Source: Marsupella aquatica (Eukaryota; Plantae; Marchantiophyta). From it: a stretch of 64,000 nucleotides of DNA. Position 1 is the stretch's first letter, and each line of letters begins with the position of its first letter. Both the position numbers and the translations under genes were made by a program. The stretch covers positions 23,083,884 through 23,147,883 of the forward strand of contig OZ316891.1 of NCBI GenBank assembly GCA_973895155.1, given 5' to 3'. The notes under the pieces are model-generated. The model did not search any database. It saw only the letters and a program-made list of their open reading frames with translations, and had not been told where the DNA came from. Below, one piece after another: positions 15,541 to 58,363 of the stretch.

Positions 15541-15563
15541 GTGCAGCGTCCCCGCAAACACAC

Positions 15564-21500: not shown

Positions 21501-21542
21501 AAGAGAGGCTTCTTTTAGTGCTTGACTCCTTGTAGTGGGCAT
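15564..21542 (-). CDS. gag-pol: Gag-Pol polyprotein of element B in a single ORF (likely ATG at 21542)
   Basis: Retrotransposon gag core, three CCHC knuckles, protease VDGGSG, RT (PFGLCNAP, FIDD), RNase H, integrase HHCC + DDE + GPY; no chromodomain; no stops. Confidence 0.97.
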   Translation of the reverse strand: MPTTRSQALKEASLSFNFGDQLEQPDWVDIHLQAEAEPGVGWSDTSSSTTNTSEDQEAAMVVTQRARFQYKTFHGKPKEDPDAWLEDFIGTAQANGEFDIKLTTLAGVLRGEARPWFNSLSNAIKNDWDAFKLAFLQEFRKVGEESEALIKMGEIRMGSKESVRRFLQRFQRLATKLDPRPVDSMLLAWFVASLPKKMGVSVRQSHPNTLDEAIEAAQSYRSAEISSSKSRRKKKRFAYSDSSSSSSESSSSVEDTSESESEESSSSSDSESDSEEDSEKKKKKKKKKAKRKSDQKRRASKKKPGGKHHKSATFNLVEGSTPATKEKKVMDNKMSEITNQLKALSVHFAGVQPDRRKVPVNRAHVWCVKCKSFGHTPQECQGWRNQVQYVNEESNDVYQASEVVDYFYEEAPEMVYQISGGPRTLQGRPAPPMAPQLMPGLQPRMVDQMGPQGPGGVARTTVVICWNCQKPGHYSNSCPEPRRQGQGAPYPLCAVCKREGHTTANCPIGSAAKMMIGRIEAPPPAVAKAPGEATVNFLSMEWQEEAKDGVTQVAGGENQPDLPGMETPEEEAVCYKVSTRSTRKKERVEERKKRKERKEHSTESPIEVEVGAEVQVPPAEDSDYKRDHPKLFYPKVNEEVKRQLEEMEAKEHQEAINKDLKVAKALKEKAEVEEKKETSKVPSYDIKKDVKDCLVTATVGQLIKDNPLYRRQLKEMLVGRRRRKLPKVGTPADVMMVCEDLGAPEIDVQVNGCVLSYVPVDGGSGVNIMIEATAQQLGFKKLQPTARTMRLANGARVLPVGTLTQVPTLIGGQEFLLNYLVMRPARPSTYPILIGRPWLYGAKVVSDWGKKEFRFGKPATSVSWGHDKHQGETTDELDEYDSELSDELSTKSESDEDEVYMLNMVSQWTEEEVFGEEQEQEALTSHSPLPSLSEVTSLEEVKQAETSAKESNQEDTITMAQEVDQTSKGAAQVEIKTRSNDQRLKAKHLALLKLKIKELEDQLKAANSEEDETQEDQHSSKEKEELSAENAPVYGGMRLAQLEGTFDSTMRNKMEVIRAEQYRTISVQQDKTFNLGNALGSGEEKTIQDLLGEYVDVFAWSHLDLTGVNPELGEHRIDLMLGASPVRQRQYRMNPKYSLMVKEEIDKLLEAGFIYPVLNSEWVSPIVIVPKKPGLDGKPKIRVCQDFRKLNEATKKDHYPIPFTDMVLDLVAGWEVYSFLDGYSGYNQIWIRKEDQLKTAFTTEWGIYAFRRMPFGLCNAPGMFQRLMMNIFHDYLRKFLEVFIDDFAVFGRGKDHVEHLRMTFQRCREVGLKLHPGKCFFGVEEGILLGHKVSKKGIEVDQEKVAVWMAVKFPTSVTELRGFLGCLNYYRRFIKDFAKVALPLTSMLKKGAEVEPSVERLASFQELKNRLVEAPILIAPDWSREFHVYVDVSGFCIGVVLSQLDDQNRDHPIYFASRLLAPAEKNYSPTDREALGIIYSCKKFRHYLLGYKVVFHTDHNALKYMVNKPDVTGRVARWILLLQEFDYEVRVRPGKKHGNADFFSRIEGEEDLKEVDDQFPDEDLFHVGSGGDTWYLDIIQFLLTTRLPRDLNQEEAAVFLRKIRPYLLVKGVLHKEGVDGRLRRCLEKKEISIVMRAMHEEEAGGHYASATTARKILDAGYWWPTLHKDVSLFVRGCDPCQRTGKPAHSRHHPLTTILPLAPFEKWGIDFIGPITPVTRSRRNRYILLATDYATKWVEARPTSKDNALTVARFMYQQIFTRFGPPLELVSDRGTHFLNEVVEELTNHYLIKHRKTTPYHPKANGLTERANGIIGKILNKTVAAHKTDWDDKLYSAVYSYNLAFKTTTGHSPFYLVFGQHSLVPVEFEVPTLRVSVEERMEADQSLMERAYQLEELEEIQEEASKQVKKKQAQVKQHHDKKLKKPTSLLAGQLVLLYDSRYAHFPGKLHTRWLGPYVVHQVYANGSIQLATLEGEVFPTRVHHDRLKRYFNQE

Positions 21543-21648
21543 GCCACTCACAATCACCTTCTTATCTCCCTTCTTCTCTTGAACAGCAAACCTGCAAACA
21601 CACCTCCAAGTCTTGTGGCTCCACTCCAACAAAAACTGTAAAGAGTTG

Positions 21649-21666
21649 TCCCCGGCAGCGGCGCCA
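21649..21666 (-). other. Primer binding site of B, tRNA-Asp type
   Basis: TGGCGCCGCTGCCGGGGA matches the complement of the plant tRNA-Asp 3' end as recalled (one mismatch), the Athila-type PBS. It lies 20 nt from the LTR. Confidence 0.8.
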
Positions 21667-21686
21667 AAAACAAGGGTGGGACTCTA

Positions 21687-24600: not shown

Positions 24601-24850
24601 CGGTCCCGACTTAGTCGCCTATTATAACTAAGGACGGACTAGTTTCCTGCCCCTCCTATAGTAACTTGCTTACCCCTAGATAACTTTGCATAACTAAATT
24701 CCCTCTTACCTCTACTAAGCTTCCCTTCTTACTTAAGTGCCCTAAACCTAGCTACTCTGATAGCACTAAAACTTTTTCCCTAACTATTTCCTCTTCTAAA
24801 CGAAAGAATGTCATGTTTCTCTACACTAGCTGACACTGAGCCATCCCACA
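21687..24850 (-). repeat. 5' LTR of element B
   Basis: Direct repeat of 12360-15523 followed on the minus strand by the PBS. Confidence 0.97.
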
Positions 24851-27800
24851 CCTGGAAACCTATTATACCTATTGTCATAAAGTAATACAAGATCTCCTGT
24901 GTGAATACTGACTGGTTTCAACCTCTTATCATACTGTTGCTTCATGGTATTCTGTCTATATTCTACTCTCTCAGCTGAAATCACTCTTGCCTCCTCTAAA
25001 GCTTCTAACCTATACTCTCGCTCCTTTAGGCTTTCCTCCGCTGAAGATCTCTCCTCAATTGTAACTTGAAATGTCGGAATCTCAAGTTGCATTGGTACCA
25101 GGGCTTCCTATCCAAAGGTTAGGAAAAAAGGTGTATGACCGGTAGTGGATTTATAGGCTAAATTGTAAGCAAAAATAGCAGCAAACAATTTATCATCCCA
25201 ATCGAGTTTGTTCTGAGCTACGGTTTTGTTCAATATCTTTCCTATAATTCCATTGGCTTGTTTTGTCAACCCATTTGCCTTTGGGTGGTAGGGAGTAGTA
25301 GGCCTATGTCTAACTAAATAATGCTCATGTAAACGACTAATTATATCATTCAGAAAATGGGTTCCTCTATCACTAACTAATTCTAAGGGTGCGCCATACC
25401 TGGTGAAGATCTGCTCATACATGAATCGAGCCGTAGTAATTGCATCATCCTTTATTGTCGGCCTGGCCTCTACCCACTTAGTTGCATAATCCGTGGCCAA
25501 GATAATGTACTTGTTTCTTTGAGGATGAGTCAATGGTTTTAGAGGTCCAATGAAATCAATACCCCACTTCTCAAATGGTGCCAGAGGTAGAATAGGGTGC
25601 CGTGGATGTCTTGTGGACGCCCTTGGTCCTCCCGCTTGCTGACAAGGATTGCATTGTTTGATAAATTTATAGACGTCCTTGTGCAAGGTGGGCCACCAGT
25701 AACCGGCATTTAATATCTTTTTAGAAGTGGTTAATGGAGCGAAATGCCCCCGGCCTCCTCCCCATGCATAGCTCGTAAGACTCGTTTTATGTCTCCCTCC
25801 TCCAAACACCTTTGAATCGTGCCACTGATTCCGTGCCTGTGTAGTACGCCCTTAATGCACTGATACTGTCTGACTTTCCGCAGAAAGACTGCGGCTTGCT
25901 CTTGGCTTAGCCCTGGCTGTAATCTGGAAGTGCTGAGAAATTGTAAAATCTCAGGGTACCATGTATCAGCTATTTCCACAACGAATAACTCCTCGTCGGG
26001 AAATCAATTGTCGATGCAATCCGTGGCAGGTTCACCTATGATCCTTGAAAAGAAGTCAGCATTGGCGTGTTGCTTTCCCGACTTGATTTTTAGCTCGTAG
26101 TCAAATTCTTGTAATAGCAAAATCCATCTTGCTACCCTGCCTGTAAGGTCCGGCTTATTTACTAGGTACTTCAAACTTTCATGATCGGTATGAAAGATTA
26201 CTTTGTACCCTAGTAGATAATGCCTAAACTTTTTACATGAATGAATGACTCCTAATGCTTCTCTTTCTGTGGTGGAGTAGTTTCGTTCGGCATCAGCAAG
26301 CTGACGGCTTGCAAAGTATATGGGATGGTCCCTTCCTTTCTCATCCAATTGACTTAGTACTGAGCCGATATAGAAGCCTGAGACATCTACAAAGACATGA
26401 AAATCCTTGTTCCAGTCTGGTGCTATCATGACTGGGGCCTCTACTAACATCTGCTTCAATTCCACTACTGCTGTTACTCGTTCTGGTGTGGGTTCAAAGT
26501 CTGCACCTGCCTTGAGCATGTTGGTTAATGGTAAAGCTAGCTTGGCAAAATCCTTGATGAACCGGCGATAATAACCAATGCACCCCAAGAAGGATCTCAC
26601 ATCTTTTATGTTCTTAGGTTGCATGATATCTAGCCATACTGCTAGCTTACCTTTGTCAATCTCAATGCCCTTCTTTGATACCTTGTGACCTAGGAGCACA
26701 CCCTCTGTTACTCTAAAGAAATATTTATCGGGGTGTAACTTGAGACCTACCTCTCTACATCTCATGAAGGTTCTCCAGAGGTATTTAGCATGTTTCGATG
26801 CCTTCCCAAATACCGCAAAGTCATCAATGAAGATTTCCATGAATTTTCTCAAGTAGTCATGAAAAATATTCACCATTAATCGTTGGAACATAGCTGGTGC
26901 ATTACAGAGTCCAAACGGCATACGATTGAAGACATAGATCCCCCATTCCGTGATGAAGGCTATCTTGATTTGGTCCTCCTGCCTAATCCTGATTTGGTTA
27001 TAACCAGAGTACCCATCCATGAATGAGTATAGTTCATGACTGGCTACCATGTCTAACGCCATATCAGTAAAGGGTAAATGAAAATGATCTTTCAATGTAG
27101 CCTCATTCAACTTCCTGTAATCCTGACAAACACAGATCTTTGGTTTACCATCGGGTCTAGCTTTCTTGGGAACTATCACAATTGGAGACACCCAGTCTGA
27201 ATGCAGGACTGGAGTGATGAATCCGGCTTCCACTAGTTTATCGATTTCAGCCTTGACCATCAGAGAATACTTAGGATTCATCCTTTGAATCGGTTGTCGA
27301 AATGATTTGGCCCCTAACATGAGATCAATTCGGTGTTCTCCTAGTTTTGGGTCTACTCCCTTTAGATCTTGGTGACTCCATGTGAACACATCCTGAAATT
27401 CAATTAGTAATTCACTGATCTCTTTCTCAAGCTCAGGTGCTAGGTCCCGCCCCAAGTTTAGTTCCCTTCCTTCTCCTAAGTCGAGCTTCCGGTATTGCCG
27501 TGCTTGGATCATATTAATCTGCTTCTTCAAATTCGGGTCCAACCCGGCCTCCAGCCTCTCCAGTCTCATACCTCCATAGACTGGAATCTCGGCAGTACTA
27601 GCCGAGTTGGTTGACTTGGATTCTCCCTGGTTATTAACAGACTGCTCCCTTACCATTCTGCTTGGTTTTGAATTGGTTGGCGGCTCCTCTTCCTGACTTG
27701 GCTCTGGTTTCTTCCCGTGCATCATATCTATTCCTGCTTCCTGAGTGTTAGGACGTCGGGCTCTTCCGGCTTCTAGCAGGGCCTCAATTTGTTCTGCCCT

Positions 27801-30800
27801 TGTGATCGGCTTGTAAGCCGATCCCTTGGTTTTTAATTTGTTGCCGATGATAGACGGCGTTGTGGATCCTGTCGGCTCTGCCACAACGCCTGAGGAAAAT
27901 CCACTGTCTCTGGTGTAGCTCCCCACTTAGCCGTTTCTAGCCGATCCGCCTCTTGTGTCTCCTCCAGAATTGAAGCTAAAAAAGTTGACTCTATGGCAAA
28001 GCAATCCTCATTCTCTTCTTCACCTTCCTCCAGGTTACTCTCCACAGGTTTGTGCCATAGTCCGCTAGGGGGTACTTCCGGTCCAAACACACTTTCTTCG
28101 GTTAGGTCAGTGAGGCATTCCAACCAACGTACTTCATCGGCTGACTCGAGTCCACTGTCGTACCCATCTACTTCCTTGATGCCTTTCCTACAATCATCCT
28201 TAGTGTCCCAGGATACCGTGATAGAGGGGATCCCAAAAGTGAACTCCTTCTTACCCCAATCTTCTATTATCTTGGCTAGGTACAGCCATGGCCTGCCAAT
28301 TAATAGTCAGAATGACGTAGGGTTTACTGGCTTCATCACTACATAGTTAATGCTAAAGAAAATACCTCCTATCTCAGTTTTGATGCCGGTTAACACCCCC
28401 GTGGGAATGACCTGATACCCATTGGCCATGTTTAACACTCTTCCAGTCATCTCCGGCGTTAGACCCCATCCTTTTGCTGTTGAATCAATCATAATACATT
28501 CCCCGGATCCTCCATCAATGGGTACCCGCAATAATATTTCTCCTTGAATCATTAATGGTAATGCTGGGGCTCCTTGATCTTCTTCTATCATCAGCACATC
28601 GGATCTGGTTGCTACCTTGGGTAATCTCGGTTTGCCAAGAATCGCCTTTCTTAACTGCTTTCGGAAGTACGGGCTATTTTTCAGTAGTTGACCTACTGTT
28701 GCCGAGACTCTAGATTCTAGCACATCTTTAGCCAGGTCATAGGGAACTATCGGCTTCTCTTCTGGTAGTGTCTTCATCTTGGCTTCGGCCTGTTTCTTCA
28801 CGTTGGTTTCCGCAGCCGTTGGATCCTCCGAAGCAAACAGTGCTTTTGCTCGTTCCACATCCTTGGCTATGGCTTCGGTATTCTCCAGGGTTTCTAATTC
28901 TTGCAGTTGTTCTAATTCTTGCAGTTGTTCCTTAACACTAGCTGTAATAGCGGGGTAGAACAGTTTAGGGTGATCTCGATTGAAATCGCTGTCCTGTGAA
29001 GGATTGGGGTCACTGGTGAGCTCATGGCTTACCTGTGTTGCCGGCGCCTTTCCTTCCCCTTCCGTCGATGTTGACAAAGAGTCGATTCTTTCTTCCTTAT
29101 CCTTCCCTTTATTTTGGCCAGCCCATCCCACCTTTCCTTCCTTCTGGTGGATCAAGTAGAGACCCGATAGCAATCATGATCCAAATCTTCTTCTGAAAAT
29201 GTTGATAAGGCCTCGGCCTCATCATCAGATGGTCCGAACTCTGCCTCGGCATCCGTTTGCCATCCAAGTTTGATGTGGTTGATTTGAACTCCTCCAGGGG
29301 TAGTACCTAGCGGTAAAACTTTGACTGGCAAGAGCTTATGATTTGCAGCCAGGCCTGCCAACCAAGTAGGACATTGTCCTAGCATGTGACCCTCCTATCG
29401 GCATCCCATACATAGCTGAGCTGGTTGTCCATCTCCTTGTTTGCGTGCATTCGGGCATTCTCTAGCAAAATGGCCAGGTTGACCACAATTATAGCATGCC
29501 GCAAATCTTTGCACATTTGGCCTAGGAGGTACTGACGGATTCTGAATAATCCGAGGATACATCTCTCCCAGATTGTTCCTTAATCCTGACCAGAGAGATG
29601 CAGGTCTGTTGGATAAGCCTTGTGCTCCAGTCTCATTGATGCCGAAAACACTATCAGCGGCATCCCCTAAAAAGTACTCTACTTCTCCCTGACATGGTCT
29701 AGCCTCAGCCACATGCCAAACATGACTAGTATTAAGTTTAGGACACGCATCTTTATGGTGTCCGGTTTTATAACATAAGGCACACCATACAGAGTTATCC
29801 TCTTGTACTACCTTCTTCTTTGGTTTTACTTCTGCTATTATAGCCTTAAGCTGCTCGGTAAGAGCTACGATGTTATCTGGCGTTTTAGCCTCTAGTTTGA
29901 CTTTCAACTTCCCCCTCCTTCTGCCCTTCTTTTTCCTAGTTTTTTCTTTTTCAGAACTAGAAGATGACTCACTCTTGCTACTTCCACTATCCGAGCTTGA
30001 GTTATCACTTCTTGACTTCTTAGAATGTTTCTTTTTCTTATCTTTTTTCTTGTGGGGTGATCCCTCCTCCGATGAGGAACTCTCATACTTAAGCTGTTTC
30101 TTTCGGCTTGTGATATCTGCATTAATGTATAATTGAATATCCTTAATTGCCTCGGCTAAAGTTTCTGGGTTCTCCTTCCTAATTGCAAAACTCATCTTCT
30201 GTGGCAAAGCATTCACTAACCATTGAATTTGCATACCTTCAGATGCATTGGTCTTTGTACGTCTTACCAACTTTTGAAAGCGTTGCAAGAACTTCCTGAA
30301 GGATTTGTTCTACTTGAACCGAAGTCGTCCCAACTTCAGTACTGCTAACTCTGAAGTTCCAATGGGTCAAAACTCCTTAACAAATAGTGGTCTGAAAGTA
30401 TTCCATATGGCTTGATCTTCCACGTCCAAGGCTTTGTACCAAGGCCTAGCCTCACCTTTGAACAGGCCGGGAAGAATTTGCATCTTGATGGTCGATTCTC
30501 CATTTGCTACAACAGTTCCTTCAAAGTCATCCAACCATTCGTTCGGATCCTCATCTCCTCTACCATGAAAGGCCTTGTAATGAATACGTGACCGTTGGCT
30601 CAGTCTGGTCCCTGGCCTCTTGTCTGGCCGTGCCTCTGGTTCCCCCATGTCAGTTGGAGACTCACTTCTCCTTACCGACCCTTCTTGTGGTATGTCTTCT
30701 TCGATGCCACTTTCAGTTACGGAGCTACTAGCTCTTTCTGCCCCTCTCAGTCGCTGTGTATCATGCCACCCGGCAAGCTGTTGCAGACAAACTCTCTCCC

Positions 30801-30840
30801 GTTGAATCGCTCTTTCCTCCCTCGGCGTAGGTTCAATCAT
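24851..30840 (-). pseudogene. gag-pol: Degenerate gag-pol of element A
   Basis: Fragments: gag (30367-30840, 29395-30288; three CCHC), protease IDGGSG (28307-29173), RT/RNase H FIDD (26004-27926), integrase (24851-25979). Many stops and frameshifts; homologous to the B polyprotein. Confidence 0.95.
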
Positions 30841-30886
30841 TACCTACGCTCCCTTCCTAACTTCATATCTCACGGCTAAAGAAATG

Positions 30887-30905
30887 CCCCCTCCATCTAG
30901 CGCCA
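30887..30905 (-). other. Primer binding site of A, tRNA-Asn type
   Basis: TGGCGCTAGATGGAGGGGG, 4 nt from the 5' LTR; resembles the complement of the plant tRNA-Asn 3' end as recalled (one mismatch). Confidence 0.72.
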
Positions 30906-31322
30906 AAAATGTGGTGCATCCCATGGCTCCCCAAACCCAAGAAACCCCCCGCACATGCCGATTCCCGCAGGTTTCGTGCTCGGCGAGGCTGTTTCCGCAG
31001 CTTAGCGGCATGGGATGCTGCTAACCTCCTACTACTCCTATTAACATTTTACACACATATACTGGACAGATCCTTCATCGGGTCATGAGATACGCACTTG
31101 GCCTAATCTAGACCTTCTCTTGTCTTTCTCTCCTGTTGGTTAGGTATATTTGGATTCCGCCGCCGGAATGATCCCCAATTGGTTTGGTTAAGCCGCTAAG
31201 ACCTCTCTCAGCTCGACACATCCAACTCTCACTCCCTTGCGTACTTCCCTTCTACTTGTTGATGTGGGCACTCTTCACACAAGTTAATGTGACACACAAA
31301 TAGCAAAATGACTCCTTCTGAC

Positions 31323-34300
31323 GAGGTTTTTCCCCGTGACAGGAAACAGTAAACAGGAATTATCATAACAGCAAAAATGGTCAAAGATAACAGGAGTTTT
31401 GTGCGCAATGCCGAAAGAAAATTCCCTCTTTAAGGACCAAAATTACACTACAATTTGAACTGAGCAATTGTAATATATGTAACAGATACAATTATTATAG
31501 ACATAAATCTTTACTAGCGCCAAAGATTTTCTACACATGAAGGCATCATTTGATAATAGCTCAAGAATGCTTGCAACAAAAATCATCACAAGAGCAATAG
31601 AAGTACATATAAATCCTAACCAAGTAAGGATTTGCAATTCTTGAGTGTTTGGATCTGGAATGTTATGCTCTCTCAAGCTGATCCCTCATTTAGTGCAAGC
31701 CAACTCTAGTGCATCTCCATTGACATCTAAGGATAATCAATGAACTTGCTCTTCCCCTATAGATGAGACGGGAGATGAGATTGTCTTGCTGATTGAGTCT
31801 TCATTCCTTTGCTAAGCGTAGACACTCCATATATGGTGGTCCGCCAAGAGGATTGTTGTATATAACATTATGACCAAAGAAACTGTTAGTTCATCTATGT
31901 ATATACCAATATTCACGCTCAAACCTATCGTGCACGACGTCAAAACTATATAAAGATTATAAGACAAAAGTTTATTCCCCTTTAGACACCCTAATTGTCA
32001 TGCTCAAACTAACTTGAATTATATTGAATCATACTTTGATTTGGACGTCTAGTAGTGACAAACTATCGATAAAGGAGCACATCATATCAAGGGTTCCATG
32101 CATCTTCCAAAGTACTACCGAGAAGATTGTAAATGTGTGGATTGACCAAAGGTTAACATCCTCACGGAGAGTGATGTGAGCAAAAAGATATACTCTTGCT
32201 ATCAAATGCAATACACTCTGGTCATTTGAATGCTCTAACCAATGATGAGGAGTTTGACATATTGTAAATTTTGATTGAACCGCCTTAGACCATTAGAGGA
32301 TGCTATGTTCTTTTTTTCTAGTAACAAGGTCAGCAGCCGTGACATTAGATAATATTAGTGATAATATAACCATTAAAATGTTACAAATGATGATCTAATA
32401 TAGTAGCACCACAAACTAATATAATAAATTGATAATTAGAGCCATTGGTTTTGACCAAAATTTATAGCAGCGCCTGGCGCTTATCAAAATATATCCTTCA
32501 GGCTATAGTCATTTTTGTTCATATTACCATAGTAGCACTCAACGCCAACAAAGAGTCCTCTTTGGTGAGGTCTCATTTACATAGATATTTCTTTATTACT
32601 TGCAAAATTGCATGACCTTCCAAAATATCCTTTGGTGTATTTAACAACAATAGCAAACACAAGAGATAAAACGGTAATACTACTAGTGAAATAGGTGGTA
32701 TATCAATAAATAATTAAAGCTCACAGACTCAAAAAAATGTTTTTCTAGAGGGTTTGGGCCAAAGTCACATTACTAGCTTTTGGCGCTAGTAATGTTCCTT
32801 TGTTTTTCTACATTTTTTGCGCAAAATTTCTCTTGTAAATTTCTCAAAATGGTGCTATTATGGAGGGTCCAAGCAAGTGTGACATTACTAGCTCCCGGCG
32901 CTAGTAATGTTAATTTATTTTTATAGCCCAATTTTCTAAAAAAATTCTCATAAATACACTCAATATGATGTTATTTTAAAGGGTCCAAGCGAGTGTGACA
33001 TTACTAGCTCCCGGCGCTAGTAATGTTGATTTATTTTTATAGCCCAATTTTCTAAAAAAATTCTCATAAATACACTCAAAATGATGTTATTTTAAAGGGT
33101 CCAAGCGAGTGTGACATTACTAGCTCCCGGCGCTAGTAATGTTAATTCATTTTTATAGCCCAATTTTTGTAAAAAAAATTCATAAATACACTCAATATGA
33201 TATTATTTTAAAGGGTCCAAGCGAGTGTGACATTACTAGCTCCGGGCGCTAGTAATGTTAATTTATTTTTATAGCCTTTTTTGCTTAATTTTTTCCCATA
33301 AAGACACTCAAAATAGTGTCATTGTGGAGGGTCTAGGTGGGTGTGACATTACTAGCTCTTGGCGCTAGTAATGTTTTATCATTTTTGTTACTCTTTGCTT
33401 ACTTATCTTTTGTAAACATGCACTCATATAGTGTCATTTTGGAGTGTCTTGGTGACTTGAATATTACTAGCTCTCGGCGCTAGTAACATTTTTAAATGTT
33501 TTATACTAATTTAGCTCAATTTTTTGTAGAAAAATTCTTAAAATAATATCATTCTTAGAGGGGATCAAGCCAAGTAAGATATTACCAGCACCCGACGCTA
33601 GTAACATTTGTATCTTTTTTATCTTTTTTATTAAATTTGTTTTATGGGTTTATGTTTATTATTTCTTGTAATTAACTCTTGTGCCAAAGTTTCTTTAAAA
33701 AATGATGGATGTTTCTACACATAAATGTGTCATTTGATGATAGCACCTAATACTTTTATCAATCAATACTTCAAATAAATATGATTTATGATAGCGCCTA
33801 GGGCTATTATACATTCTGCACAAGATTTTAGGACTATTGAGATAGCAATTAGGTACTAAATTAGGGATTATATCATATAAATATATTCAATTTGTCTCAA
33901 TTTCTTTTGCATCTGGAGTTATTATGGGATTTATTTCTAGATTTAATCCAAGAGTTTGATCTTCATGACCTTTAAACACATCAAATTACGCCAATTTGTA
34001 TAGTAGAGTATGGCATTACTATCATATTTTCCTTGTTCTATACTAGATATTTTGGGGTTGCTAGAGAGTGTCAAACTCTAATCCTATTGTAGCCTAAAAC
34101 TTTTCTCATTTTCTTAAGCACCTCACATTCTTATGAGAATAATTTAGAAGTAATTCTATTTTTTTTTTATGAAAATAACAACAACCCACATATATAGAAT
34201 CAACAACTTGAAAAATATAAAATATGTATTACTTGAGATTTCCTATATAATTGAAGGTTTGATTTAATTAGGAATTAGATAAAAAAAAATTCCAAATGAG

Positions 34301-34918
34301 GAGTTTTTTGGCCAAGACTGTGTCCCTCACGTAAGCACTCTTTCAATAATCTTGATGATGATGTACACTTTAAGTCTCCCCCTTAGAATTTAAAGAGGAT
34401 CAGATTTGGCCAAATGCAAGAAATACGCACTTGGTTTATAGGAGAAGTATATTGCATTTTTGTAAGAGTTCAACAAACATAGGAATTTGTTGTATGTTAA
34501 TTGTAAATCTTGTGACTATGTAAAAACTATGATGGTATTTTGACTAGCGTCGGGAGGGGGTGTTAATGATAACCCTTGCCAAAATGCTAAGTATCCACCG
34601 ACAAAATACAAATTACATACTTTCCAATAAACAATGCACATTTTGTTTGCCTAACATGTGATGTAATTTGCTAATTATAACCCTTGCAACTAATATGAAA
34701 ACGTATCATTGTATTTTGGCTAGCGCTCGACGCTAGTAAACTTATCCCATTATAACAAAAAGCGATAGCCTGGATCATGAATATCATAGAAAATATATTT
34801 TTGGCTCTTGAAAATGAAATATTTTTTTTGTTGTGAGCGCAAAAACTCCTGTTATCTTCCTTGAATTTTCCTGTTATGATTTTTCCTGTTTACTGTTTCC
34901 TGTCACGGAGGTCAGGCC
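31323..34918. mobile_element. Non-autonomous TIR DNA transposon (MULE-like, ~3.6 kb, AT-rich)
   Basis: TSD (C)CTTCTGAC, 8-9 bp, at 31314-31322 and 34919-34927; ~90-bp imperfect TIRs with core CCGTGACAGGAAACAGTAAACAGGA; empty site at ~3983; no transposase. Confidence 0.88.
32730..33650. repeat. Tandem array, about 8 x 116 bp, each unit with a palindrome
   Basis: ACATTACTAGC...GCTAGTAATGT (degenerate in the last two units) starts at 32767, 32882, 32998, 33114, 33230, 33346, 33461 and 33579. Confidence 0.92.
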
Positions 34919-35426
34919 CCTTCTGACTGAGTTCTACCATGCACTTGAAATACAGACAGTACATCTCATATACAAGCTCTGTGAACTAAGCCATGAGGCC
35001 AACTCTATTGAGTACTTAGGTATGAGGAAACATGAATATACACAAGGGTCACTGTATAACTAACCGAGAGCTTCTCTTACTACTTGATCCCAACCCTGTT
35101 GGTGCAACTAAAAACTTGCTAAAGAAGAGGCCCTGAACTCCCCGCAGCCCAGGTACTTATCCTGGTCGCGGATCCGCCTGATTCCTTGCAGTGTAAGCCT
35201 AATCTACCTACAGTAATCTACTTGACTGTAATCTACCTATGTACAGCAAGGCAGGAGCACAAGTGTCACCCTCACCCGTGGATCCAAAATCCCACTAATC
35301 TAAGTGTCAGGGCCGTCTCCAGGTCCTGATCCTAAGTCTAAACTTGGAGATCAGCGCCCGCCCTTCCCACTCACGCCTCCTACCTCCATGTCCGCCTTCC
35401 CTAAAAGGGACGGCGCCCTTACACCG

Positions 35427-38400
35427 TCACGACACCGGTGGCTGGTCCTCACTGGACACCCCCAACGCATCCTCTATAGCCACTGCCGTTGGTCCGTCCT
35501 CTAACAGATTACCTGCCCTTGACCGAGTCAACTCTTCATCGGCCTGACTGGGTCCACCCTCGGCTTTGGCCTCAGCCTCGGTCAAGGCCTCCAATACGGC
35601 TACGGCCTCCCCGGCATGTTCTAGTGGAGGATCCGGTACCTCGGTATCATTACTGGTTCTCCCGGCCTCGCCCTTGCCATCTCCTCTTCCTAGGACTGGT
35701 GGATCCACCGTCATGCCGATGCTGGAGATTGGTGTCGGGTTTATCTTCTCGGTCACAATGGCTTGAGAAGCCGTATAACTCCCAGACCCAGAAGGTTTCC
35801 GCTTCTTTTGCTTCCCTATTTTGACAGCCGGTTCCTTCCCCTTGCCACTTACCTTCGGCACTGGGGTGAGTGTTTCGGCTTGTCCTGCGGCCAATACTAC
35901 CCCTGGTAACTGGGTTCCCCCAATTGGAGTTGGACCTGATGAAGCCAAGCATTTAAATACTGCGGCTTGTGTCTTCAGCCGCTCCGTTTGGCTCAAGGGC
36001 TCCGCGGATATCTTCGAGCTTTCCTTGATAGGATTTCCCTAACTCTGCTTCCTTCTGCTCAAGGGCTCCGCGGATATCTTTGAGCTTTCCTTTCAACGCC
36101 CTCTCCCTTCTCTGGTTCTCCGCCATTGCTCGATTGTTGGTTGCTAAGTGGGCCTCCTCTACATCCCTTAGCTCCTGCTTCCATTTCTCTCTTTCTTTGG
36201 CTGTGCCGGCCAACTCTCCTTGGGTCCGAATCAGTTTATCCTTGATAATCTGATTGTCAGACTGAGCGGTATCCAACTGCCCCTGCATGATGTTTAGCTC
36301 ATGTTGCTTAATCCGTAGCTCATCTTGGGCTTTCTTGGCCACCTGCAAGACTTCCACCTCGGCTTCCTTCTCCCTAAGCCGCCGGATGACCTCGTTCTTC
36401 TTGCTTCTCTCCAAAGCCACCGCTTCTTCTAATCGGTGCTTTTCCAATATCTCCCTTTGGAAAAAGGGTCCCTGCTCCAAATCCTCCCCAAAGATGCTGA
36501 GCGCCAGGTCCCCACACATCTCCCCGTACTCCATGGCTCTATCCTTAGCATAGGTGGAGTAACTAGAAGTCATCGGCATCAACCACCGTGGCCTCTGCTC
36601 CCAAGCCGCCTTGTGGATTTCTTCTATGGTGGCAAGAGGGTTGCTTCATTTTTTGGCAAGCCGCCTGATGTCCTCTGGCCAATCTCCTCCTAGTAAATCC
36701 TTCTCCCTAGCCAGGGCTGCTTTCTCTTCCTCCCTAAGTCGCTCCTGAAATTCTTGTGCCGTCTGCTTTATGCTGTCAAAGCTCAGGGGAGCAATCTCTG
36801 GTGGGGGAGACTCGGGGCTACTCTGTTGGGTGGGGTCCCCTCAAACTACTCTTGGAAGCGTGGGGATAAATTGGCCATAGGTCCTTACTCCTGGAACATG
36901 ATGATCCGATCCATAGGCGGAGTTATCATTGTTGTAGTCCTCCACCGCCTCCTCCACTACTTGGACTCCCGGCTTCTCCCTTTGGTCCCCTGGTCCAGTC
37001 ATGAAAATGGCCTCTGGTTCCTCTGGTTTCCAGGCTGTCATCTCCCTCTACTCTCCGCGGGAAGGAGCTTTAGGCTGCTCTGCCTCTGATTCGGGGCTTG
37101 AGGCTCCCACATACATTTGCACTCCCGGCTTGTGTTCTGGCCTCCTGGTCTCCGATAAAGGGGTCTTCCCTTCTGAGTCGGCTTAGGCCGACCTCTGGGG
37201 TATTGTCCTGTATTGTTGCCGTTGCCATTGCCGGAATTGTTCTCCTTTCCTTCTCCAGCAATTTCAGCAGATTTTGCATGCCTGGTTGCTGCATCGGCAC
37301 GTCTTCTTTCTTTGTCCGAAACACTTTCTGGATCGTTGGACTGTCGGGCTGGTTGGGCTTCTCTGGTGCCGGCCCCTGCTCCAGAACCTCCTTCGGTGCC
37401 CTTGCCGATAGGGGAAGTACTGGGGCAAAGATTTGACTTCTGGCATACCGGCACAACAGCGGCATGTGATAGCCAAGCCGGGACACACTTCCCACGCCGA
37501 TCACCTACTGTTCCTCCTTCAAGATTTTCTTTAGTTGGTTGAGGAGGTACCCGTTGTAATCTCGGCTTGGGTCTGGCCTTTCTGCCAGGTAGACCTGAGC
37601 CTTGCCGATCTCTGCCCTCGGCAAGTTATAGTGCATGGTCACCCGCAAGAAATTGATCATCTCTCCAATGTGCGGGTTGGTGCAGGTGTTCCGGAAGAAG
37701 CCATTCTTTGTTGATGGTCCTGGGAACGACCGGAACTCCTTGTCAGGTAAGGTCTTCCTGGTATCAACCTTGGTCTTATTACCCATCGGCAAGCCAAACA
37801 CCTCAGCAATCACCCGGGGAGTGAGATAGAAATCCTTCCCATACACCCTCGTGGAATTGGTCTCGGGTTCCCATGATCCCACAAATTCTAATAAGTCTGA
37901 GTCCGGCACCTCCGGCTTCAGCCATGGTAATCTTACAAAGGCTTCCAAGCCGGATCCGGCCATGAAGCCTTGGTACGTCTTGGTCTGCATGGCCGTAAAG
38001 CATGCATCCTCCTGCCGTGCAAAGTGTAATTGCACCTCCTCCGGTAGGGTCGCCGCCTAGCCTTTCCAGGTGTCATCATTTGTTAGAATGGCCTTGATGG
38101 GATCGACCTCTTCCTCTTTGGCGTTTCCCCTTGTCCTGCTCTGCTGGCTTCCTAGGTACCGCCAACCTTGTTCTTTTTGCCGGGGTGGCCTCTTCATTGT
38201 TGTTTCCTTTCCTCTTCATCTTGGCTGTCGTGGATGTTTCTCCTAGCAAGGTTGCCTTTGTCCACCCCTCCGTGTTACCCTTCAACTCCTAGTGTAGGTT
38301 GTTGCAGCGATTGATGGCTTCCCGGATGCCGATGATTCTGTTTTTGCAAAACAGAAGGTCGTCGAGCTGATTGGCAGTAGGAGTCCACAAGAACTCGGCC

Positions 38401-38832
38401 TTGATAAGTTCTCCTCCTAAGAAAGCCGTCTTCTGTAGTTCCCAAAGCCGAGCAAGTTCCTGTCATTCTTGAGCTGCTCTCTCCGATTCTTCGTCCTCGT
38501 AAGTCCTGACGTACTCACCTGCCCGTTCGAACAGGCATCCCCAAAAATGTGCCGCTTGATTGACGTTGCTCATACCCTCCTTGAGTCGATCGTTGGTATC
38601 TGCTCCCACCCCGAGTGCTTGCCTAAGCAGTTGACAGCATTTGTCCTCCCATAGTCGTATGCCCAGTTCGTTCTTGCAAATGAGTCACTATTCCTCGCGA
38701 GCGGTCCTTACCCCTCTCCTCCTCTGGTCTTCCCTCATTGGTCACCCCTAGCCGCCGACGCTTAGCGCGCCCTAACCCTAATCGTGTTCTCTCCCTCGGC
38801 GTCCTTACTTCTGGCCTCGGCCCGGGTTCCAT
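35427..38832 (-). pseudogene. LTR-encoded accessory ORF of family A, 5' LTR copy
   Basis: Track fragments from 38623-38838 to 35427-35996 match the other two copies; stops, frameshifts and a deletion near 35990. Confidence 0.85.
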
Positions 38833-38948
38833 AGTCACCCTTAATTGTTTATATTTTCCTTGTTTTGTTCCTATACTAAGGTGTTTCCAGGGTACACTCC
38901 TGCTTTACCATGTAAATCGGGCTAGTGATTCCTAGCTAGGCATCACCA

Positions 38949-50730: not shown

Positions 50731-52551
50731 CTTATTTGCACACACAAGATGTGAAGTATGCCTAAGATCAATGAGTTAATCAATAGCTAGGTAACTTATA
50801 GTCACTTTTAAAAGGGTCTTAATAAGCAGTGTTGTGTGGTCACTGAGCACCAAATTTCATTATCATGAAGCCTCCTCATGAAGGAATACATTGAGGTCAA
50901 TATTGGTGTTTATGTCTACATCCCTAGCACCACCTCCAAAGTGCATGACACAAGCAAGAAGTGGTGGAGTGAACTGATTTTCTGTCCTACGTCGCCGCCT
51001 ACCGTCCTTAAATTCCTTGCCTAACCTACTCAGATGCTGCCTGATAGATTCCTGAACCACTTTGCGCTTGGATGGTAGTTTACATGGTGTTGTGCCATCC
51101 TCCTCCTGCCATTCAAGAAAGTTGCTAAGTTACCGCTCTTCAATTATTTGGTTTTTCATACAGGACAGAACAAAAATTGGAACAAACAAAAAATATAGAA
51201 CTTACCATATTAGTAATTATTTGAGATGAAGCTGCTTGTTCTCTTGTTTGTGTTGTCCTCAAAGCCATAGTCCTCCTTCGTCTCTTCCCACCGTGGTAAA
51301 TGTCCACAACACCTAGACGTCACTTGGATGTAAGACCCATAGGCCTGACAAAAGCATCCACAGGACCTATATTGTCTTTCATTGAGAGGTGTTTAGTTTG
51401 TTCTTGGCTCTTCACTTTGTTCAAAGTAAGTTGTGTTGCCAGGAATACTTGCTCTGTTAGACGGGCATCCCCTTCCACAATGAGCAAAATCTCATCAAAC
51501 ATCTGTTGCACAGATTGTCTGAGGGACTGCTCTGGGTTCTCTTTAGGCAGAACAGAAACATGAAGGCTAGATTCCATTGTTTCACAAACCACATTAGGCT
51601 CAACTTGGCCTTCTACTTCTACATGTTCAGGTGGTGTCTCGATGTTCTCATCCGCATTCAAATGTGAGATGCCACCCATGAGGCTACCAAACCTGGTACC
51701 TAGTTGTTGAACCAAGACAGCACCTTGACAACCTCTCACTAGCAATCCCTTCAATTGGTGCTTGCACATGTTCCCTTCATCAGCCCACTTACAACAGCAT
51801 GAAGGAAAGTATGAATATATATTGTGCACAATATACTCTCTCCCAATAGATTTTAAACTTTTCACAATTGCCTGATTGGGCAATGTTGGATCAGGAAAAC
51901 AGACCTGATGGTCTTTCATTTGATGCTCTGCCTTGTGAAGACTATTCAAGACTATTTCCTCTTTCTTGTAGTTGATGACTCTTCCCCTTGCTTTGCACCG
52001 AATTTGGTACCAAAAGAATGGAAGCATCACTTGAAAAAGTGCATTCACAATCCGATCAAGGCGACATGCTCCAATGGCCCCTATTACTCTCCTTATCATC
52101 TTTTTCAAAGTGCAATGCCAAGCTTCAATTGCACCATTTGTATTCTGGTTGGCACGGGGCATTGATCGAACAGCCCTCATCCACTTTGCTGGAATATAAG
52201 ACATGCCACAACATTTAGTACCAGAGATCCAGGCGGAGTTCTGAAGTATTCCACAACTATAGAGACACAGGATATTATGCAATACAGAACAGCTACAAAG
52301 GCACACAAACTTGTGCAATACAGAATAGCTACAAAAACATTGCAAAAATAAAATACATGGCAAGATATAAATACAATACAAAAACCTTAGACCAAATGGA
52401 CATGTTGACAACAAAGAATTTACTAAAATGGCCAGGCATACCCCAAATAGCAAACCACATACCTGTTCTGTACATCCAAGTGTCCTCAAAATACTTCAGA
52501 AATAGCTTTTCAAAGTTGTATTTAATTTTGAAGGCATGCCACAAGGCTTGC

Positions 52552-55500
52552 TGTGGTGCGTCCCATGGCTCCCTAAACCCAAGAAACCCCCCAGCTCAAG
52601 CCGATTCCCGCAGGTTTCGTGCTTGGCGAGGCCGTTTCCGCGGCTTAGCGGCATGGGACGCTGCTAACCTTCTACTACTACTATTAACATTTTACACACA
52701 TATACTGGACAGATCCTTCATCGGGTCATGAGATACGTAGCCGGCCTAATATAGGCCTTCCCCTGTCTTCCCCTGTCTTCCCCTCCGTCTTGTTAGGTAT
52801 GTTTGGATTCCGCCGCCGGAATGATCCCCAATAGGCTTGGTTAAGCCGCTAAGACCTCTCTCAGCTCGACACATCCAACTCTCACTCCCCTGCTTACTTT
52901 CCTTCCTTCTGTTGATGTGGGCACTCTTCACACAAGTTAATGCGACACACAAATAGCAAAATGACTCATTCTGACTGAGTCATACCATGCACTTGCCATA
53001 CAAACAGTACATCTCATACACAAGTTCTGCGAACTAAGCCGTGAGGCCAACTCTATTCAACTCTTAGGCATGAGGAAACATGAATATACACAAGGGTCAC
53101 TGTATGACTAACCGAGAGCTTCTCGTACTACTTGATCCCAGCCCGGCTGGTGCAAACTAAAAACTTGCTAAAGAAGAGGCCCTGAGCTCCCCGCTGCCCA
53201 GGTACTTATCCTGGTAGTGGATCCGCCATTCTTTGCATCGTAAGCCTAATCTACTTAACAGTAATCTACTTGCCCGAATCTACCTATGTACAGCAAGGCA
53301 GGAGCACAAGTGTTGCTCCTACCAGTGGGACCGCAATCCCACTAAGCTAAGTGTCAAGGCCGCTCCTGGTTCTGATCCTAATCCTAAACGTGGAGATCCG
53401 CGCCCGCCCTGCCCACTCACGCCTCCTCCCTCCACGTCCGCCCTCCCTAAAAGGAACGGCGCCCTTGCACCGTCACGATACCGGTGGTGGATCCTCAATG
53501 GACGCCCCCAACACTTCCTCCTCAGCCACTGCCGTTGGCCCGCCTACTGACAGATTACCTGCCCTTGACCGAGTCAACTCTCCATCGGCCTGACTGGGTC
53601 CACCTTCGGCTTCAGCCTCGACACCGGCCTCGGCAATACCCACGGCTTCGGCCTCAGCCACTCCCACGGCTTCGGCTTCAGCCACTCCCCTAGGGTAGTT
53701 GGATCCTTAGCCGTGACCCTGTCTGGGGTCGGTGCTGGGTCTACCTCCTTGATCACCACGGCCTGTGAAGTCGTATTACTCCTTGACCCTGAAGGTTTCC
53801 GCTTCTTCTTTGTTGGTGGCTCGACAGCTGGTCCCTTCCCCTTCCCACTTACTTCCGGCACTGGTGCAGTTGACGCGGCTTGTCCTTCGGCAATTACCAC
53901 CCCTGGTAACTGGTTTGTCCCAACGGGAGATGGACCTGCTGCAGCTAAGCATTTAAATACTGCGGCTTGTTTCTTTAGCCGCTCTGTTTGGTTGTCGGCC
54001 CGCCGCTGTAGGTTCTCCATCTTCCTCGTGATTTCCTCCAACTCCTCTTGGGTTTCATCCAGGTCCTTACGTGCCCCCTCCAGCTCGTTTTTGGCCTCCT
54101 CCTGCTCCCTGTGGGCTTCCTCCAATTCCTTCTTCAAGGTAGCCCTCTCCTCCCGGGTTGCTCTTAGCTCCTTGTCGAGCTCTGCAATGATGACAGACTC
54201 CATCTGGTTCATCTTGGCGTAAGTCTGTTCGAGCATCTCGTCCTTCTCCCTTAGGTCGGCCTTGAAGCTGGCCGTCAGGGACGCAAGCTCCTACTGCAGT
54301 GCCATAATCCCTTGATAGGATTTCCCTAACTCGACCTCCTTCTGCTCAAGGGCTCCGCGGATTTTCTCGAGCTCCCCTTTCAACGCCCATTCCTTTCTTT
54401 GGGTCTCCGCCATGGCCCGGTTGTTGGCTGTTATGTGGGCCTCCTCTGTATTCTTCAGCTATTGCTTCCACTTCTCCCTCTCTTTGATCGTGTCGGCCAA
54501 CTCTTCCTGCGTCTGAGTCAGTTTATCCTTGATATTCTGATTATCAGCCTGCGCGGTGTCCAACTGCCCCTGCATGATGTTCAGCTCATGTCGTTTAATC
54601 CGCAGTTCATCTTGGGCTTTCTTGGCTGCCCTTAGATCTTCAATCTTGGCTTCCATCCTCCTAAGCCGCCGAATGACCTCGTCCTTCTTGCTTCTCTCTA
54701 AAGCCACCGCTTCTTCTAATTGGTGCTTCTCCAACTGCTCCCTATGGAAAAAGGGTCCTACCTCCAACTCCTCTCCAAAGATGCCGAGCGCAAGTTCCCC
54801 ACACATCTCACCATACTCCATGGCTCTATTCTTAGCGTAGGTGGAGTAAGTAGAAGTGATCGGCATCGCCCATCGTGGCCTCTGCTCCCAAGCCGTCCTG
54901 CGGATCTCTTCAATCGTGGCTAGAGGTTTGCTTCCTTTTTCGGCTAGCCGCCTGATGTCCTCCGGCCAATCTCCTCCTGGTAAATCCTTTTCCTTAGCCA
55001 GGGCGGCCTCTTCCTCCTGCTTGATTCGCTCCTGAAATTCCTGCACCGTCTGTTTTATGCCGTCGAAGCTCGGGGGAGCAACATCTGGTGGGGGAGACTC
55101 AGGGCTACTCTGCTGGTTGGGGTCCCCTCGCACTACCCTTGGAAGTGTGGGGACAAACCGGCCACAGGTCCTTACTCCTGGAACGTGATGGTCCGACCCA
55201 TAGCCGGAATTATCATGGCTGCAGTCCTCCACTGCCTCCTCTACCTCTTGGACGTCCGGCTTCTCCCTCTCCTCTTCGTCGGTAGGAGCTTCAGGCAATT
55301 ATGCCTCAGATTCGGAGCTTGAGGTTCCCACGTACATTCGAACACCTGGCTTGGATTCCGGCCTGATTCTCTCCTTGTCTCCAGCAAAGGGGTTTTCTCT
55401 TGTGAGCCGGTGTAGGCCTACCTCTGTAGTAGTGTCCTGCATTGTTGCCGTTGCCGTTGTTGTTGCCGATGCCGATTTCTTTTCTTTCTCTAGTAGTTTC

Positions 55501-57189
55501 AGCAGACTCTGCATGCCTGGTTGCTGCATCGGCAAGTCTTCCTTCCTGGGCCTAAACACCTGCTCGATCGTAGGACTAACAGGTGGTTGAGGCTTCTCAG
55601 CCAACGGCCTCGGCGTTGGAGCTTCCTCGGGTGCCCTTACCTGCAGGGGAAGTACCGGGGCAAAAGTCTAACCTCTGGCATACCGGCACAACAGCGGCAT
55701 GTGATAGCCAAGCCGCGACACGCTCCCCATGCCGATTACCTGCTGCTCCTCCTTTAAGATCTTCTTCAATTGGTTGAGGAGGTACCCGTTGTAGTCCCGG
55801 CTTGGGTCTGGCCTTTCTGCCAGATAGACCTGTGCCTTGCCGATCTCTGCCCTCGGCAAGTTACAATGCATGGTCACCCGCAAGAAGTCGATCATCTCTC
55901 CTATGTGCGGGTTGGTGCAGGTGTTCCGGAAGAAGCCATTCTTCGTTGATGGCCCGGGGAACGACCGGAACTCCTTGTCAGGCAAGGTCTTCCTGGTATC
56001 AACTTTGGTCTTATTGCCTATCGGCAGGCCAAACACTTCGGCAATTACCTTGGGAGTAAGATAGAAATCCTTCCCATATATCCTCGTGCAATTGGTCTCG
56101 GGTTCCCATGACCCCACGAATTCTAATAGGTCTGACTCCGGTACCTCCGGCTTCAGCCATGGTAATCTTACAAAGGCCTCTAAGCCGGATCCGGCCATGA
56201 AGCCTTGGTACTTCTTGGTCTGCATGGCCGTAAAGCATGCATCCTCCTCCCGTGCAAAATGTAGTTGCACCTCCACCGGTAGGGTTGCCGCCCAGCCCTT
56301 CCAGGTGTCATCCCTGGTTGGAATGGCCTTGATGGGATTGACCTCCTCCTCTTCGGCTTCTCCCTGCCTCCTGCTCTGCTGCTCGGCTGGCTTCTTTGGT
56401 GCCGCCGACCTCGTTCTTTTTGCCGGGGTGGCTTCATCGTTGACGGCTCCCTTCCTCTTCATCTCTGCTGCCGTGGAGGTTTCTCCTAGCACCGTTGCCC
56501 GGGTCCACCTTTCCGTGCTACCCTTTAATTCCCAGTGTATGTCGTTGCAGTTCTTGATGGCCTCTCGGATGCCGACGACGTTGTCTTTGCAAAATAGAAG
56601 ATCGTCGAGTTGATTGGAAGTAGGCGTCCACAGGAACTCGTCCTTGATGAGTTCGCCTCCTAAGAAAGCCATCTTCTGCAGCTCCCACAATCGAGCGAGC
56701 TCCTGCCGTTCTCGAGCTGCCCTTTCTGACTCCTCGTCCTCGTAAGTCTTGATGTACTCAGTTGCCCGTTCGAACAGGCATCCCCAGAAATGTGCCGCTT
56801 GATTGACGTTGCTCATACCCTCCTTAGGTCGATCGTCGGTATCTACTCTCTCCCCGAGTGCTTGCCTAAGCAGCTGACAGTAGTTGGCCTCCCGTAGTCG
56901 TCTGCCTAGTTCGTGCTCGCAAATGAGCCACCATCTCCTGCAAGCGCTCCTTACCCCTCTCCTCTGCCGGTCCTTCTTCCCGTTGATCCTTCCTAGCCGC
57001 CGACGCTTAACACGCCCTAACCCTAATCGGGTTTTCACCCTCAGCCTTACCTCCGGCCTCGGCCCGGGTTCCATGGTTGCCCCTAATTGTTTATATTTTC
57101 CTTGTTTTGTCCCTATACTAAGGTGTTCCTAGGGTGCCTTCCTGCTTTACCCACTTAACCGGCCGAGTGATTCCTGTCTAGGCATCACA
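52552..57189 (-). mobile_element. Solo LTR of family A (4638 bp, diverged subfamily, no nested inserts)
   Basis: TGTGGTGCG...GGCATCACA; TSD CTTGC (52547-52551, 57190-57194); colinear with both LTRs of element A. Confidence 0.95.
53473..57074 (-). pseudogene. LTR-encoded accessory ORF of family A (~1200 codons), best-preserved copy
   Basis: Track ORFs 55668-57074, 55299-55604, 54459-55298 and 53574-54236 share one frame, separated by single stops; one frameshift near 53690 leads to the DPPPVS* end seen in all copies. Globular domain at ~56225-55675 and long coiled coil at ~54740-53960. Confidence 0.88.
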
Positions 57190-58363
57190 CTTGCATGTCT
57201 TCCTCAGCATACATTAAATCTCCAAGATCATCATTCATGTTTAGGAGCTTGGCTCTGTTGGGAACCTTCTTGATCAGATTCTCCTTCCAAGCTCTATATG
57301 CACTAGTAGAAAACAATGTATTTTATGACCGAAACAATGACTATTAATCAGGTCTTTTTAACAAAACAATGACACAATCGTTCTCGTCTTTCCAGACGCG
57401 TCACAACGGACATTTTGGTCATGGTCCTTTTGGACAAATGATGCTAAAAATGTGTGGTCATTTCATACTATCCTAAATGACCATTTTTATGATATGGTCA
57501 TAAATGCTTAACGGTCCAAAATGACAACACAAATCACCATCTACGGTCAATTGCCATTGACTGTCGATGGTCCCCGTACCCAATCACACAACGACATGTG
57601 GCAATCCAAAAACAAATAGCATTGGTCATTTTGGACTTGTCCAAAATGACGTACATTATATAACAAATCAAATAGTGACACATGGTTCAAAGAGGATTCA
57701 CCATTTGGCAATATATTTGGGTCATTTTGGACAAGTCCAAAATGACCACGGTATAAACAAGTCATATTGAGACACGTGGTTCAATTGGGAGAAGACACAT
57801 AAAGATACACATTAGTCATTAATGACATGTCTTGAATGACATAAAGTGAGTCATAGTGGACTTGTTTATAATGACCATGAGAACAGTCATTGTATATGTC
57901 ATTCTTTGAATCATTTAGTCTATGTCTTTAATGACCAGAGTTGAGTCATATTGGTCACAAAGATAGTTGTGGATAATGACCATTACATCAGTCATTCTAG
58001 CCAGTCATTCAGACGAAGTATTCAATGATTTGGAGAAATTCAAAATTAAGTGATCATGATAGATAAAACTTCATGTCAATCAAAAATCATACATTACAAA
58101 GCCATTCAATAGATTTGCTGAATGAAAACTTAAAGAAATATTCGATATATATCACAAATCCAATTGACATTCATACAAGATACCTTCATAAGTCTCACGG
58201 TAATTACTGAACTCAATGCAAATTTATGAAACAAAATTACATTGACATCAATAATATTAGATTATCAATTGTTACAACCTGACATACCAATCACTCTGCA
58301 TGTTTATAGAAAAACAGAGCTATCATTCTATCATGTCTATTGTTTCTTGACAGAGTGCTATTT

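Follow-up and report, generated by a model that had tools for sequence, protein, structure and literature searches.

The extra open reading frames (ORFs) of plant retrotransposons that carry long terminal repeats (LTRs) are placed in the internal region of the element in the available text of the sources that describe them (PMC7264820; PMC6317226; PMC11963269; PMC11728184; PMC7197481; PMC3485330), and their function has been called a long-open question (PMC7264820). The present analysis concerns 64,000 nucleotides of the liverwort Marsupella aquatica (contig OZ316891.1, positions 23,083,884 to 23,147,883), referred to below as the window, in which a Ty3/gypsy family (family A) carries an accessory gene inside its LTR. 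No plant retrotransposon with a gene inside the LTR was found in a literature search, as judged by listings and with subscription journals outside its coverage. The case described is that of a plant retrotransposon whose LTR holds a gene in the manner of a retrovirus, with a predicted anti-silencing fold in the product.

The precedent for this layout is the sag gene of mouse mammary tumour virus (MMTV), which the preliminary description of the locus had rightly named; sag lies in U3 and persists mostly in solo LTRs (PMC4667437). The LTR ORFs of MMTV and other betaretroviruses are likewise encoded inside the LTR and under purifying selection, and LTR-internal promoters are reported for them; however, MMTV is an animal retrovirus, its U3 placement is established, and sag encodes a superantigen of unrelated function (PMC4667437). 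Among plant elements, Athila ORF-1 (PF03078) and Transposase_32 (PF20167) are sense accessory ORFs of non-chromovirus Ty3/gypsy elements with 5-bp duplications and no aRH domain, as in family A (PMC6317226; PMC11728184), and 166 of 168 listed ATHILA ORF-1 matches are 3' and sense (PMC6317226). The likeness of the family A gene to these ORFs consists of weak sequence and language-model leads below Pfam cut-offs. Athila ORF-1 is located between pol and the 3' LTR, whereas the family A gene is inside the LTR and the internal region holds gag-pol only. The plant mobile domain (PMD) ORFs of Ogre and the TRP28/SMC-like ORFs of Retand also join a globular domain to a long coiled coil in an accessory gene, but they are internal, mostly antisense and found in lineages with aRH, and Retand LTRs measure 315-1194 bp (PMC6317226; PMC11963269; PMC5418596).

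VANC21 of the Arabidopsis transposon VANDAL21 binds a short motif and strips methylation from its own transposon family (PMC5735166). It shares with the family A protein the predicted core fold (Z 8.0-8.3), a coiled coil and its origin in a transposon accessory gene (PMC5735166; PMC10398659), and the CpG pattern of family A is compatible with an escape from methylation such as VANC21 brings about. VANC proteins differ in coming from dicot Mutator-like DNA transposons and in binding tandem motif arrays (PMC5735166; PMC10398659), whereas the family A protein is encoded in a retrotransposon LTR, has an additional N-terminal domain and 7% identity to VANC21, and no motif array was found for it. 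A VANC is defined by a VANDAL Mutator-like DNA transposon as its source and by DUF1985; no Pfam or PDB sequence match to that domain was found in the family A product, which resembles it in predicted fold. The family A protein is not a VANC.

The repeat at 52552-57189 and the gene inside it

The unit at 52552-57189 is a solo LTR of a Ty3/gypsy retrotransposon. Read on the minus strand, its 4638 bp begin with TGTGATG and end with CACCACA. Self-comparison finds the unit three times in the window (52552-57189, 30910-38948 and 1347-12167), the latter two copies being split by nested insertions, and all three open with TG and close with CA on that strand, with an extra G after TG in the 5' copy. 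The two split copies are the direct repeats at the ends of element A, which has a primer-binding site (PBS) after its 5' copy, a polypurine tract (PPT) before its 3' copy and the order gag, reverse transcriptase, RNase H and then integrase in between. An ATGTC target-site duplication flanks the whole of element A (38949-38953 and 1342-1346), and the solo copy has its own CTTGC duplication. The preliminary description was accurate on the TG..CA ends, both duplications, the PBS at 30905 and the PPT at 12168. The solo copy is 83-90% identical to the LTRs of element A depending on the region, and its non-coding tail is better conserved than its gene (89.5% vs 83% identity). The tail contains a 15-bp repeat in three copies (53254-53283), present in all three family A units, and a TATA-like CCTATATTA near 52754.

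The solo copy was also compared with contigs from 4 of 17 listed public runs (X1, X2, X3 and X6). In X1 and X2 the summed contig depth, which is not a copy number, stands at about 350-1800 on the left-hand flank and at 144,000-1,270,000 inside the unit, an increase of several hundred-fold; the right flank is itself repeated (summed depth 13,000-58,000). Where contigs of other copies exit at 52552, they run on into a PBS-like consensus in X2 (at least 31 contigs, agreement 0.4) and X3 (at least 4), the low agreement being expected for a mixture with flanking DNA, and those leaving at 57189 continue into a weakly PPT-like consensus in X3 (at least 4 contigs, agreement 0.52). Neither continuation is among the contig exits listed for X1 and X6. 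Few and weak loose ends at the PPT side, together with a second family (C, described below) whose PBS and PPT junctions were not seen in contigs, favour the reading that the unit is an oversized repeat arising from local recombination or mis-assembly and that the gene normally resides in the internal region. Such an origin is very improbable, since both ends are common to three copies, each insertion has a separate 5-bp duplication, the unit directly adjoins PBS and PPT, pol terminates by the LTR boundary as it does in the sister element B, depth remains high across the unit after its rise at the left end, and the same layout recurs in family C.

The gene inside this LTR is almost certainly real. 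A single sense frame, as the preliminary description had it, spans 57074 to 53574 in the solo copy and has no frameshift, but it is not open, being broken by stops at 55670, 55301, 54461 and 54293. Chance openness was rejected as an explanation: 300 shuffles gave at least 18 stops (median 27), compared with 4 in 1081 codons. All four stops are private to the solo copy, and at three of the four sites another letter makes up 95-100% of the depth in each of the four runs. The gene copies in the LTRs of element A have additional stops and frameshifts. When the solo copy is compared with these two LTRs, the ratio of nonsynonymous to synonymous change (dN/dS) is 0.28-0.29 (confidence interval, CI, 0.23-0.35) over codons 86-1125. 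The core domain is the most constrained part (0.11-0.15), followed by the N-terminal domain (0.19-0.20) and the coiled coil (0.22-0.25). Between the two LTRs of the single insertion A, for which neutral drift is expected, dN/dS of the core is 0.99 (CI 0.44-4.6). The gene is maintained by selection in the family, though broken in these copies. A real antisense gene was considered and rejected; the other five frames give dN/dS of 0.90-1.19, apart from the antisense frame that shares third positions, at 0.38.

The start and extent of the gene differ from those first given. A start at the first ATG, 115 bp into the LTR, was rejected because codons 1-85 are unselected (dN/dS 1.1-1.3) and contain one frameshift and two stops common to both LTRs of element A, and because family C and three other homologue clusters have methionine at the column of ATG 56816. 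The start is therefore placed at ATG 56816 (LTR position 374), and the gene has about 1080 codons and fills 70% of the LTR, rather than about 1200 codons and 78%; its end lies 1022 bp short of the LTR end, where about 920 bp had been given. The stretch at 56817-57074 is likely a 5' leader. The last 40 or so codons have a dN/dS of 1.5 and a reading frame that differs among copies, and the true stop position may vary between subfamilies. A 24-bp tandem repeat lies near the gene end (53625-53689), where the solo copy and the LTRs of element A differ in frame.

To judge from motifs, a promoter for the gene likely lies within the LTR. TATAAA at LTR position 95 is the only canonical TATA-like motif of the 4.6-kb LTR and is kept in all three copies; in family C a TATA at position 360 similarly lies upstream of the ATG at 477. 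A promoter of this kind supports the earlier idea that solo-LTR recombination leaves a promoter-plus-gene cassette. The conserved upstream TATA makes that idea plausible, but each of the window's four gene copies is broken. That each element carries two copies of the gene is borne out by both LTRs of element A, and that the gene survives solo-LTR formation by the solo copy. The internal borders of an LTR are not definable from motifs alone (PMC3601003). The chances that the gene lies in U3 with its own promoter are about even, and a place in R/U5 is somewhat less probable than that. If it lies in R/U5, the same promoter starts the genomic RNA, whereas a place in U3 implies a second promoter in the conserved last kilobase. 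The lean to U3 arises because Athila ORF-1 genes lie sense behind pol and because pol here abuts the PPT.

Element A fits the Athila lineage in its 5-bp target duplication and in the absence of aRH and chromodomain matches in Pfam (lineage table, PMC6317226 supplement). In about half of Athila members an accessory ORF separates pol from the 3' LTR. None was found at that place in element A, and its pol reads past the PPT to a stop 10-12 bases into the 3' LTR. The PBS of element B is one letter off the published TGGCGCCGTTGCC, and that of element A has only TGGCGC in common with it. Athila elements have a PBS for tRNA-Asp or tRNA-Asn, and the PBS of element A may be of the tRNA-Asn type. The two LTRs of element A differ at 166 of 4284 sites (3.9%).

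Predicted fold and relatives of the gene product

The product is predicted to consist of an N-terminal helical domain, a core domain, a linker and a coiled coil. Structure prediction with a fold search, which had been proposed at a stage when no protein function was in hand, gave one clear resemblance for the core. Of 48,161 chains, no more than two score Z 2 or higher, namely DNA-bound VANC21 (Z 8.0, 7% identity, root-mean-square deviation (rmsd) 4.3 over 207 of 219 residues) and a protein design (Z 2.0). A second VANC21 entry gives Z 8.3, and across both entries (PDB 9LNK and 9LNJ) the core model matches VANC21 residues 284-525 with an rmsd of 4.0-4.3 over 203-207 of 219 residues. In Foldseek, VANC21 ranks 15th with an E-value of 4.0 but a query-normalised score (TMq) of 0.57, compared with at most 0.17 for the other 49 matches listed. 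A viral fold library gave one match (E 0.06, TM 0.33), which was not used. The N-terminal domain has no Foldseek match, and its best structural scores (Z up to 5.6) are to generic helical bundles. A KKKRK cluster resembling a nuclear signal lies near 53800, after the coiled coil, and basic clusters occur in both the A and C proteins. An env-like membrane protein was rejected, as no transmembrane stretch was found in either protein (maximum Kyte-Doolittle value over 19 residues 0.82 in A and 1.28 in C).

The similarity to VANC21 could also be one of a common arrangement, in which case the protein would have a structural or RNA-handling role, such as a particle scaffold or cell-to-cell movement, like proteins described as env-like. 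The 7% identity, the Foldseek E-value and the long coiled coil are in keeping with this, as is the description of the second Athila ORF as env-like and expressed from a spliced RNA (PMC7197481). Such a role is nevertheless improbable, because the match spans nearly the whole core and is isolated (the next Z is 2.0), and because a transmembrane segment is lacking. The PMD-C domain is reported to resemble the DUF1985 of VANC, PMD-A being retrotransposon-encoded (bioRxiv 2024.09.27.615353), and VANC and the Athila domain have both been modelled as coiled-coil multimers (PMC13547354).

The LTR-borne gene is more general than first described, as a second family in the window has a homologue. The unit at 5775-9781, which probably represents this second family's solo LTR, is unrelated to family A at the DNA level; it is repeated along its full length in the public runs, and other family A copies have an empty site in its place. 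Its protein has the same order of N-terminal domain, core, linker and coiled coil and is 26% identical to the A protein over 279 columns (E 2e-17). The core domain is confined to four LTR-type units in the window and was not found in the 3164-bp LTR of element B. A profile search with the core returned 64 proteins at E <=0.001 among 1.84 billion. Of 30 relatives looked up, 9 are from Calypogeia fissa and 2 from Riccia sorocarpa, and all named sources are liverworts. Among 66 aligned proteins, 4 match Transposase_32 (best E 0.006), which is a weak lead, and the proximity to Transposase_32 and ATHILA ORF-1 clusters in the Atlas (0.89 and 0.88) is a language-model lead only. Word-index protein searches (one of them limited to 1368-3905 amino acids), and metagenome scans with a homologue and with the LTR end motif found nothing, and PDB sequence searches gave no real match. 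Two Riccia sorocarpa proteins (P0052 and P0060) have a DDE_Tnp_4 fragment ahead of the core domain. The core may also ride on PIF/Harbinger elements, or these gene models may be joins; for the latter reason the two fusions were set aside as evidence for a DNA-transposon origin.

Proposed role of the protein and the CpG contrast

The favoured proposal, that the product is a sequence-specific nuclear factor countering the silencing of its own family, is about as likely to be right as wrong. Under this model the gene would derive from the sense accessory ORF behind pol in Athila elements, and its entry into the LTR would date from the adoption of a PPT right at the end of pol. It would be transcribed from the TATA near the 5' end of the LTR, and the protein would multimerise through its coiled coil, enter the nucleus, bind short motifs in the LTRs of the family and reduce CG methylation there, so that the family remains active. 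Every insertion would bring two gene copies, and solo-LTR formation would leave one.

A lineage that escapes CG methylation should retain CpG better than the gene-less element B, and this is what was observed. In the homologous reverse transcriptase-RNase H stretch, A has 23 CpG and B has 3 (observed/expected ratio, o/e, 0.42 vs 0.05). At synonymous codon junctions before G, C is used at 25 of 98 sites in A and 5 of 136 in B (p 1.4e-6), whereas junctions before other bases show no difference (p 0.82). CpG loss in B is extreme (pol o/e 0.13). Element A is the older insertion, and decay after insertion would act opposite to the observed contrast.

Several observations weigh against an anti-silencing role. 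A shared fold alone shows no function, and a Z of 8, with 7% identity and an rmsd of 4, comes close to what the search tool calls common, with a Foldseek E-value of 4.0 for VANC21. VANC is reported to be confined to dicots and to have arisen from MAIN (PMC13547354), so the likeness can be at most a distant kinship. The gene product has no Pfam family above cut-off, and DUF1985 is absent among the 25 families listed for 66 aligned proteins. The CpG contrast comes from one lineage pair, and Mutator-like stretches without the gene also retain CpG (o/e 0.47-0.73). VANC targets are tandem motif arrays (PMC5735166), and no 7-mer or 8-mer is enriched over shuffles in the LTR head or tail of A or C, the best being reached by 6 of 100 shuffles. 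Besides the broken state of every gene copy in the window, dN/dS of the whole gene between the two LTRs of element A is 0.55 (CI 0.39-0.83), under the expected 1 and not fully explained.

Another nuclear task is also conceivable, with the LTR gene and its fold correctly identified and the protein activating the LTR promoter, tethering integration to chromatin or bringing the pre-integration complex into the nucleus. This alternative is a serious one, though it stays below even chances. Host proteins of the fold are reported to oppose Polycomb silencing or to promote silencing of transposable elements, not to demethylate (PMC5418596; bioRxiv 2024.09.27.615353), Retand TRP28 and the Athila ORFs are presented without known function (PMC11963269; PMC7264820), and motif arrays were not found in the LTR heads and tails. 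Against it stand the CpG retained in A relative to its sister B and the fact that an anti-silencing factor provides the sole solved match to the fold.

The widest form of the anti-silencing proposal is unlikely as a whole. It holds that a liverwort Ty3/gypsy lineage moved a VANC-like, sequence-specific anti-silencing gene with its promoter into its LTRs, that solo LTRs are expressible cassettes shielding the family in trans, and that the fold of VANC, PMD and Athila ORF-1 is an old counter-silencing module of retrotransposons rather than a dicot invention. If true, the solo LTRs left over after purging by the host would shield the whole family, and the fold would predate flowering plants. Family A links a plant accessory ORF to the solved VANC21-DNA fold, and element B, without the gene and CpG-depleted, is a natural control that makes anti-silencing directly testable. 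The layout shows that 70% of a plant LTR can be coding sequence, and solo LTRs are not necessarily inert; genes of this kind may be missed in surveys where extra ORFs are sorted according to internal-region position.

Features of the window and neighbouring elements

The coordinates of the features discussed are collected in Table 1.

Table 1. Positions in the window of the family A and family C features.
Feature	Position	Strand	Remarks
Solo LTR, family A	52552..57189	-	TG..CA ends; self-comparison; contig depth step at left end
Target-site duplication CTTGC, left	52547..52551	+	
Target-site duplication CTTGC, right	57190..57194	+	
TATAAA motif, LTR position 95	57090..57095	-	Predicted core promoter of the gene
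Unselected stretch, likely 5' leader	56817..57074	-	Stop-free in solo copy; telobox-like TTAGGGTT
LTR-borne accessory gene, ~1080 codons	53574..56816	-	Broken by four stops
N-terminal helical domain, ~110 amino acids	56475..56816	-	Common to family C and other homologues; model pLDDT 78.5
Core domain, ~220 amino acids	55671..56327	-	Predicted VANC21/DUF1985-like fold; pLDDT 91.7
Predicted coiled coil, ~260 amino acids	53940..54734	-	Coiled-coil Pfam matches sub-threshold only
Non-coding LTR tail, 1022 bp	52552..53573	-	
5' LTR of element A	30910..38948	-	Split by a Mutator-like insertion of 3.6 kb; broken gene copy
3' LTR of element A	1347..12167	-	Two nested solo-LTR-like insertions; gene copy broken
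Primer-binding site TGGCGCTAGA...	30888..30905	-	4 T after 5' LTR
Polypurine tract	12168..12180	-	Adjoins 3' LTR; identical motif at the same place in element B
Internal region of element A	12168..30909	-	6246 bp, gag-pol only, nested element B excluded
Family C unit, 4007 bp	5775..9781	-	TG..CA; TTTTC duplication; TATA at position 360
Family C homologue of the gene, 876 codons	6675..9305	-	One frame, 5 stops

Element B (12360-24850) is a very young Ty3/gypsy element nested in the integrase of element A, with identical 3164-bp LTRs, one open frame of 2039 codons and a 20-base spacer ahead of its Athila-type PBS. Fragments of a B-family LTR, 80-86% identical and in opposite orientation, occur at 42551-43767. 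The 3' LTR of element A contains a 2227-bp TG..CA insertion with a CCGCC duplication (1602-3828), which probably is a solo LTR, non-coding, from yet another family. The Mutator-like insertion in its 5' LTR (31326-34918) is bounded by long inverted ends and a duplication of 9 bp (CCTTCTGAC), and it contains a tandem array of 116 bp at 32767-33486. The segment at 39831-42113, likely also a Mutator-like element, has an Ulp1 protease ORF (PF02902, E 7e-16), a second ORF without a Pfam match, 15-bp repeats and a CpG o/e of 0.73. Adjoining the solo LTR, a 391-codon frame at 51320-52495 has no Pfam match and a SWIM-like Cys/His pattern recognised by eye, which suggests that the LTR inserted into a Mutator-like transposase gene. 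Finally, CACTA-type ORFs (DUF4216 and DUF4218) lie at 61635-63685, with an exact 135-bp duplication at 63392-63664.

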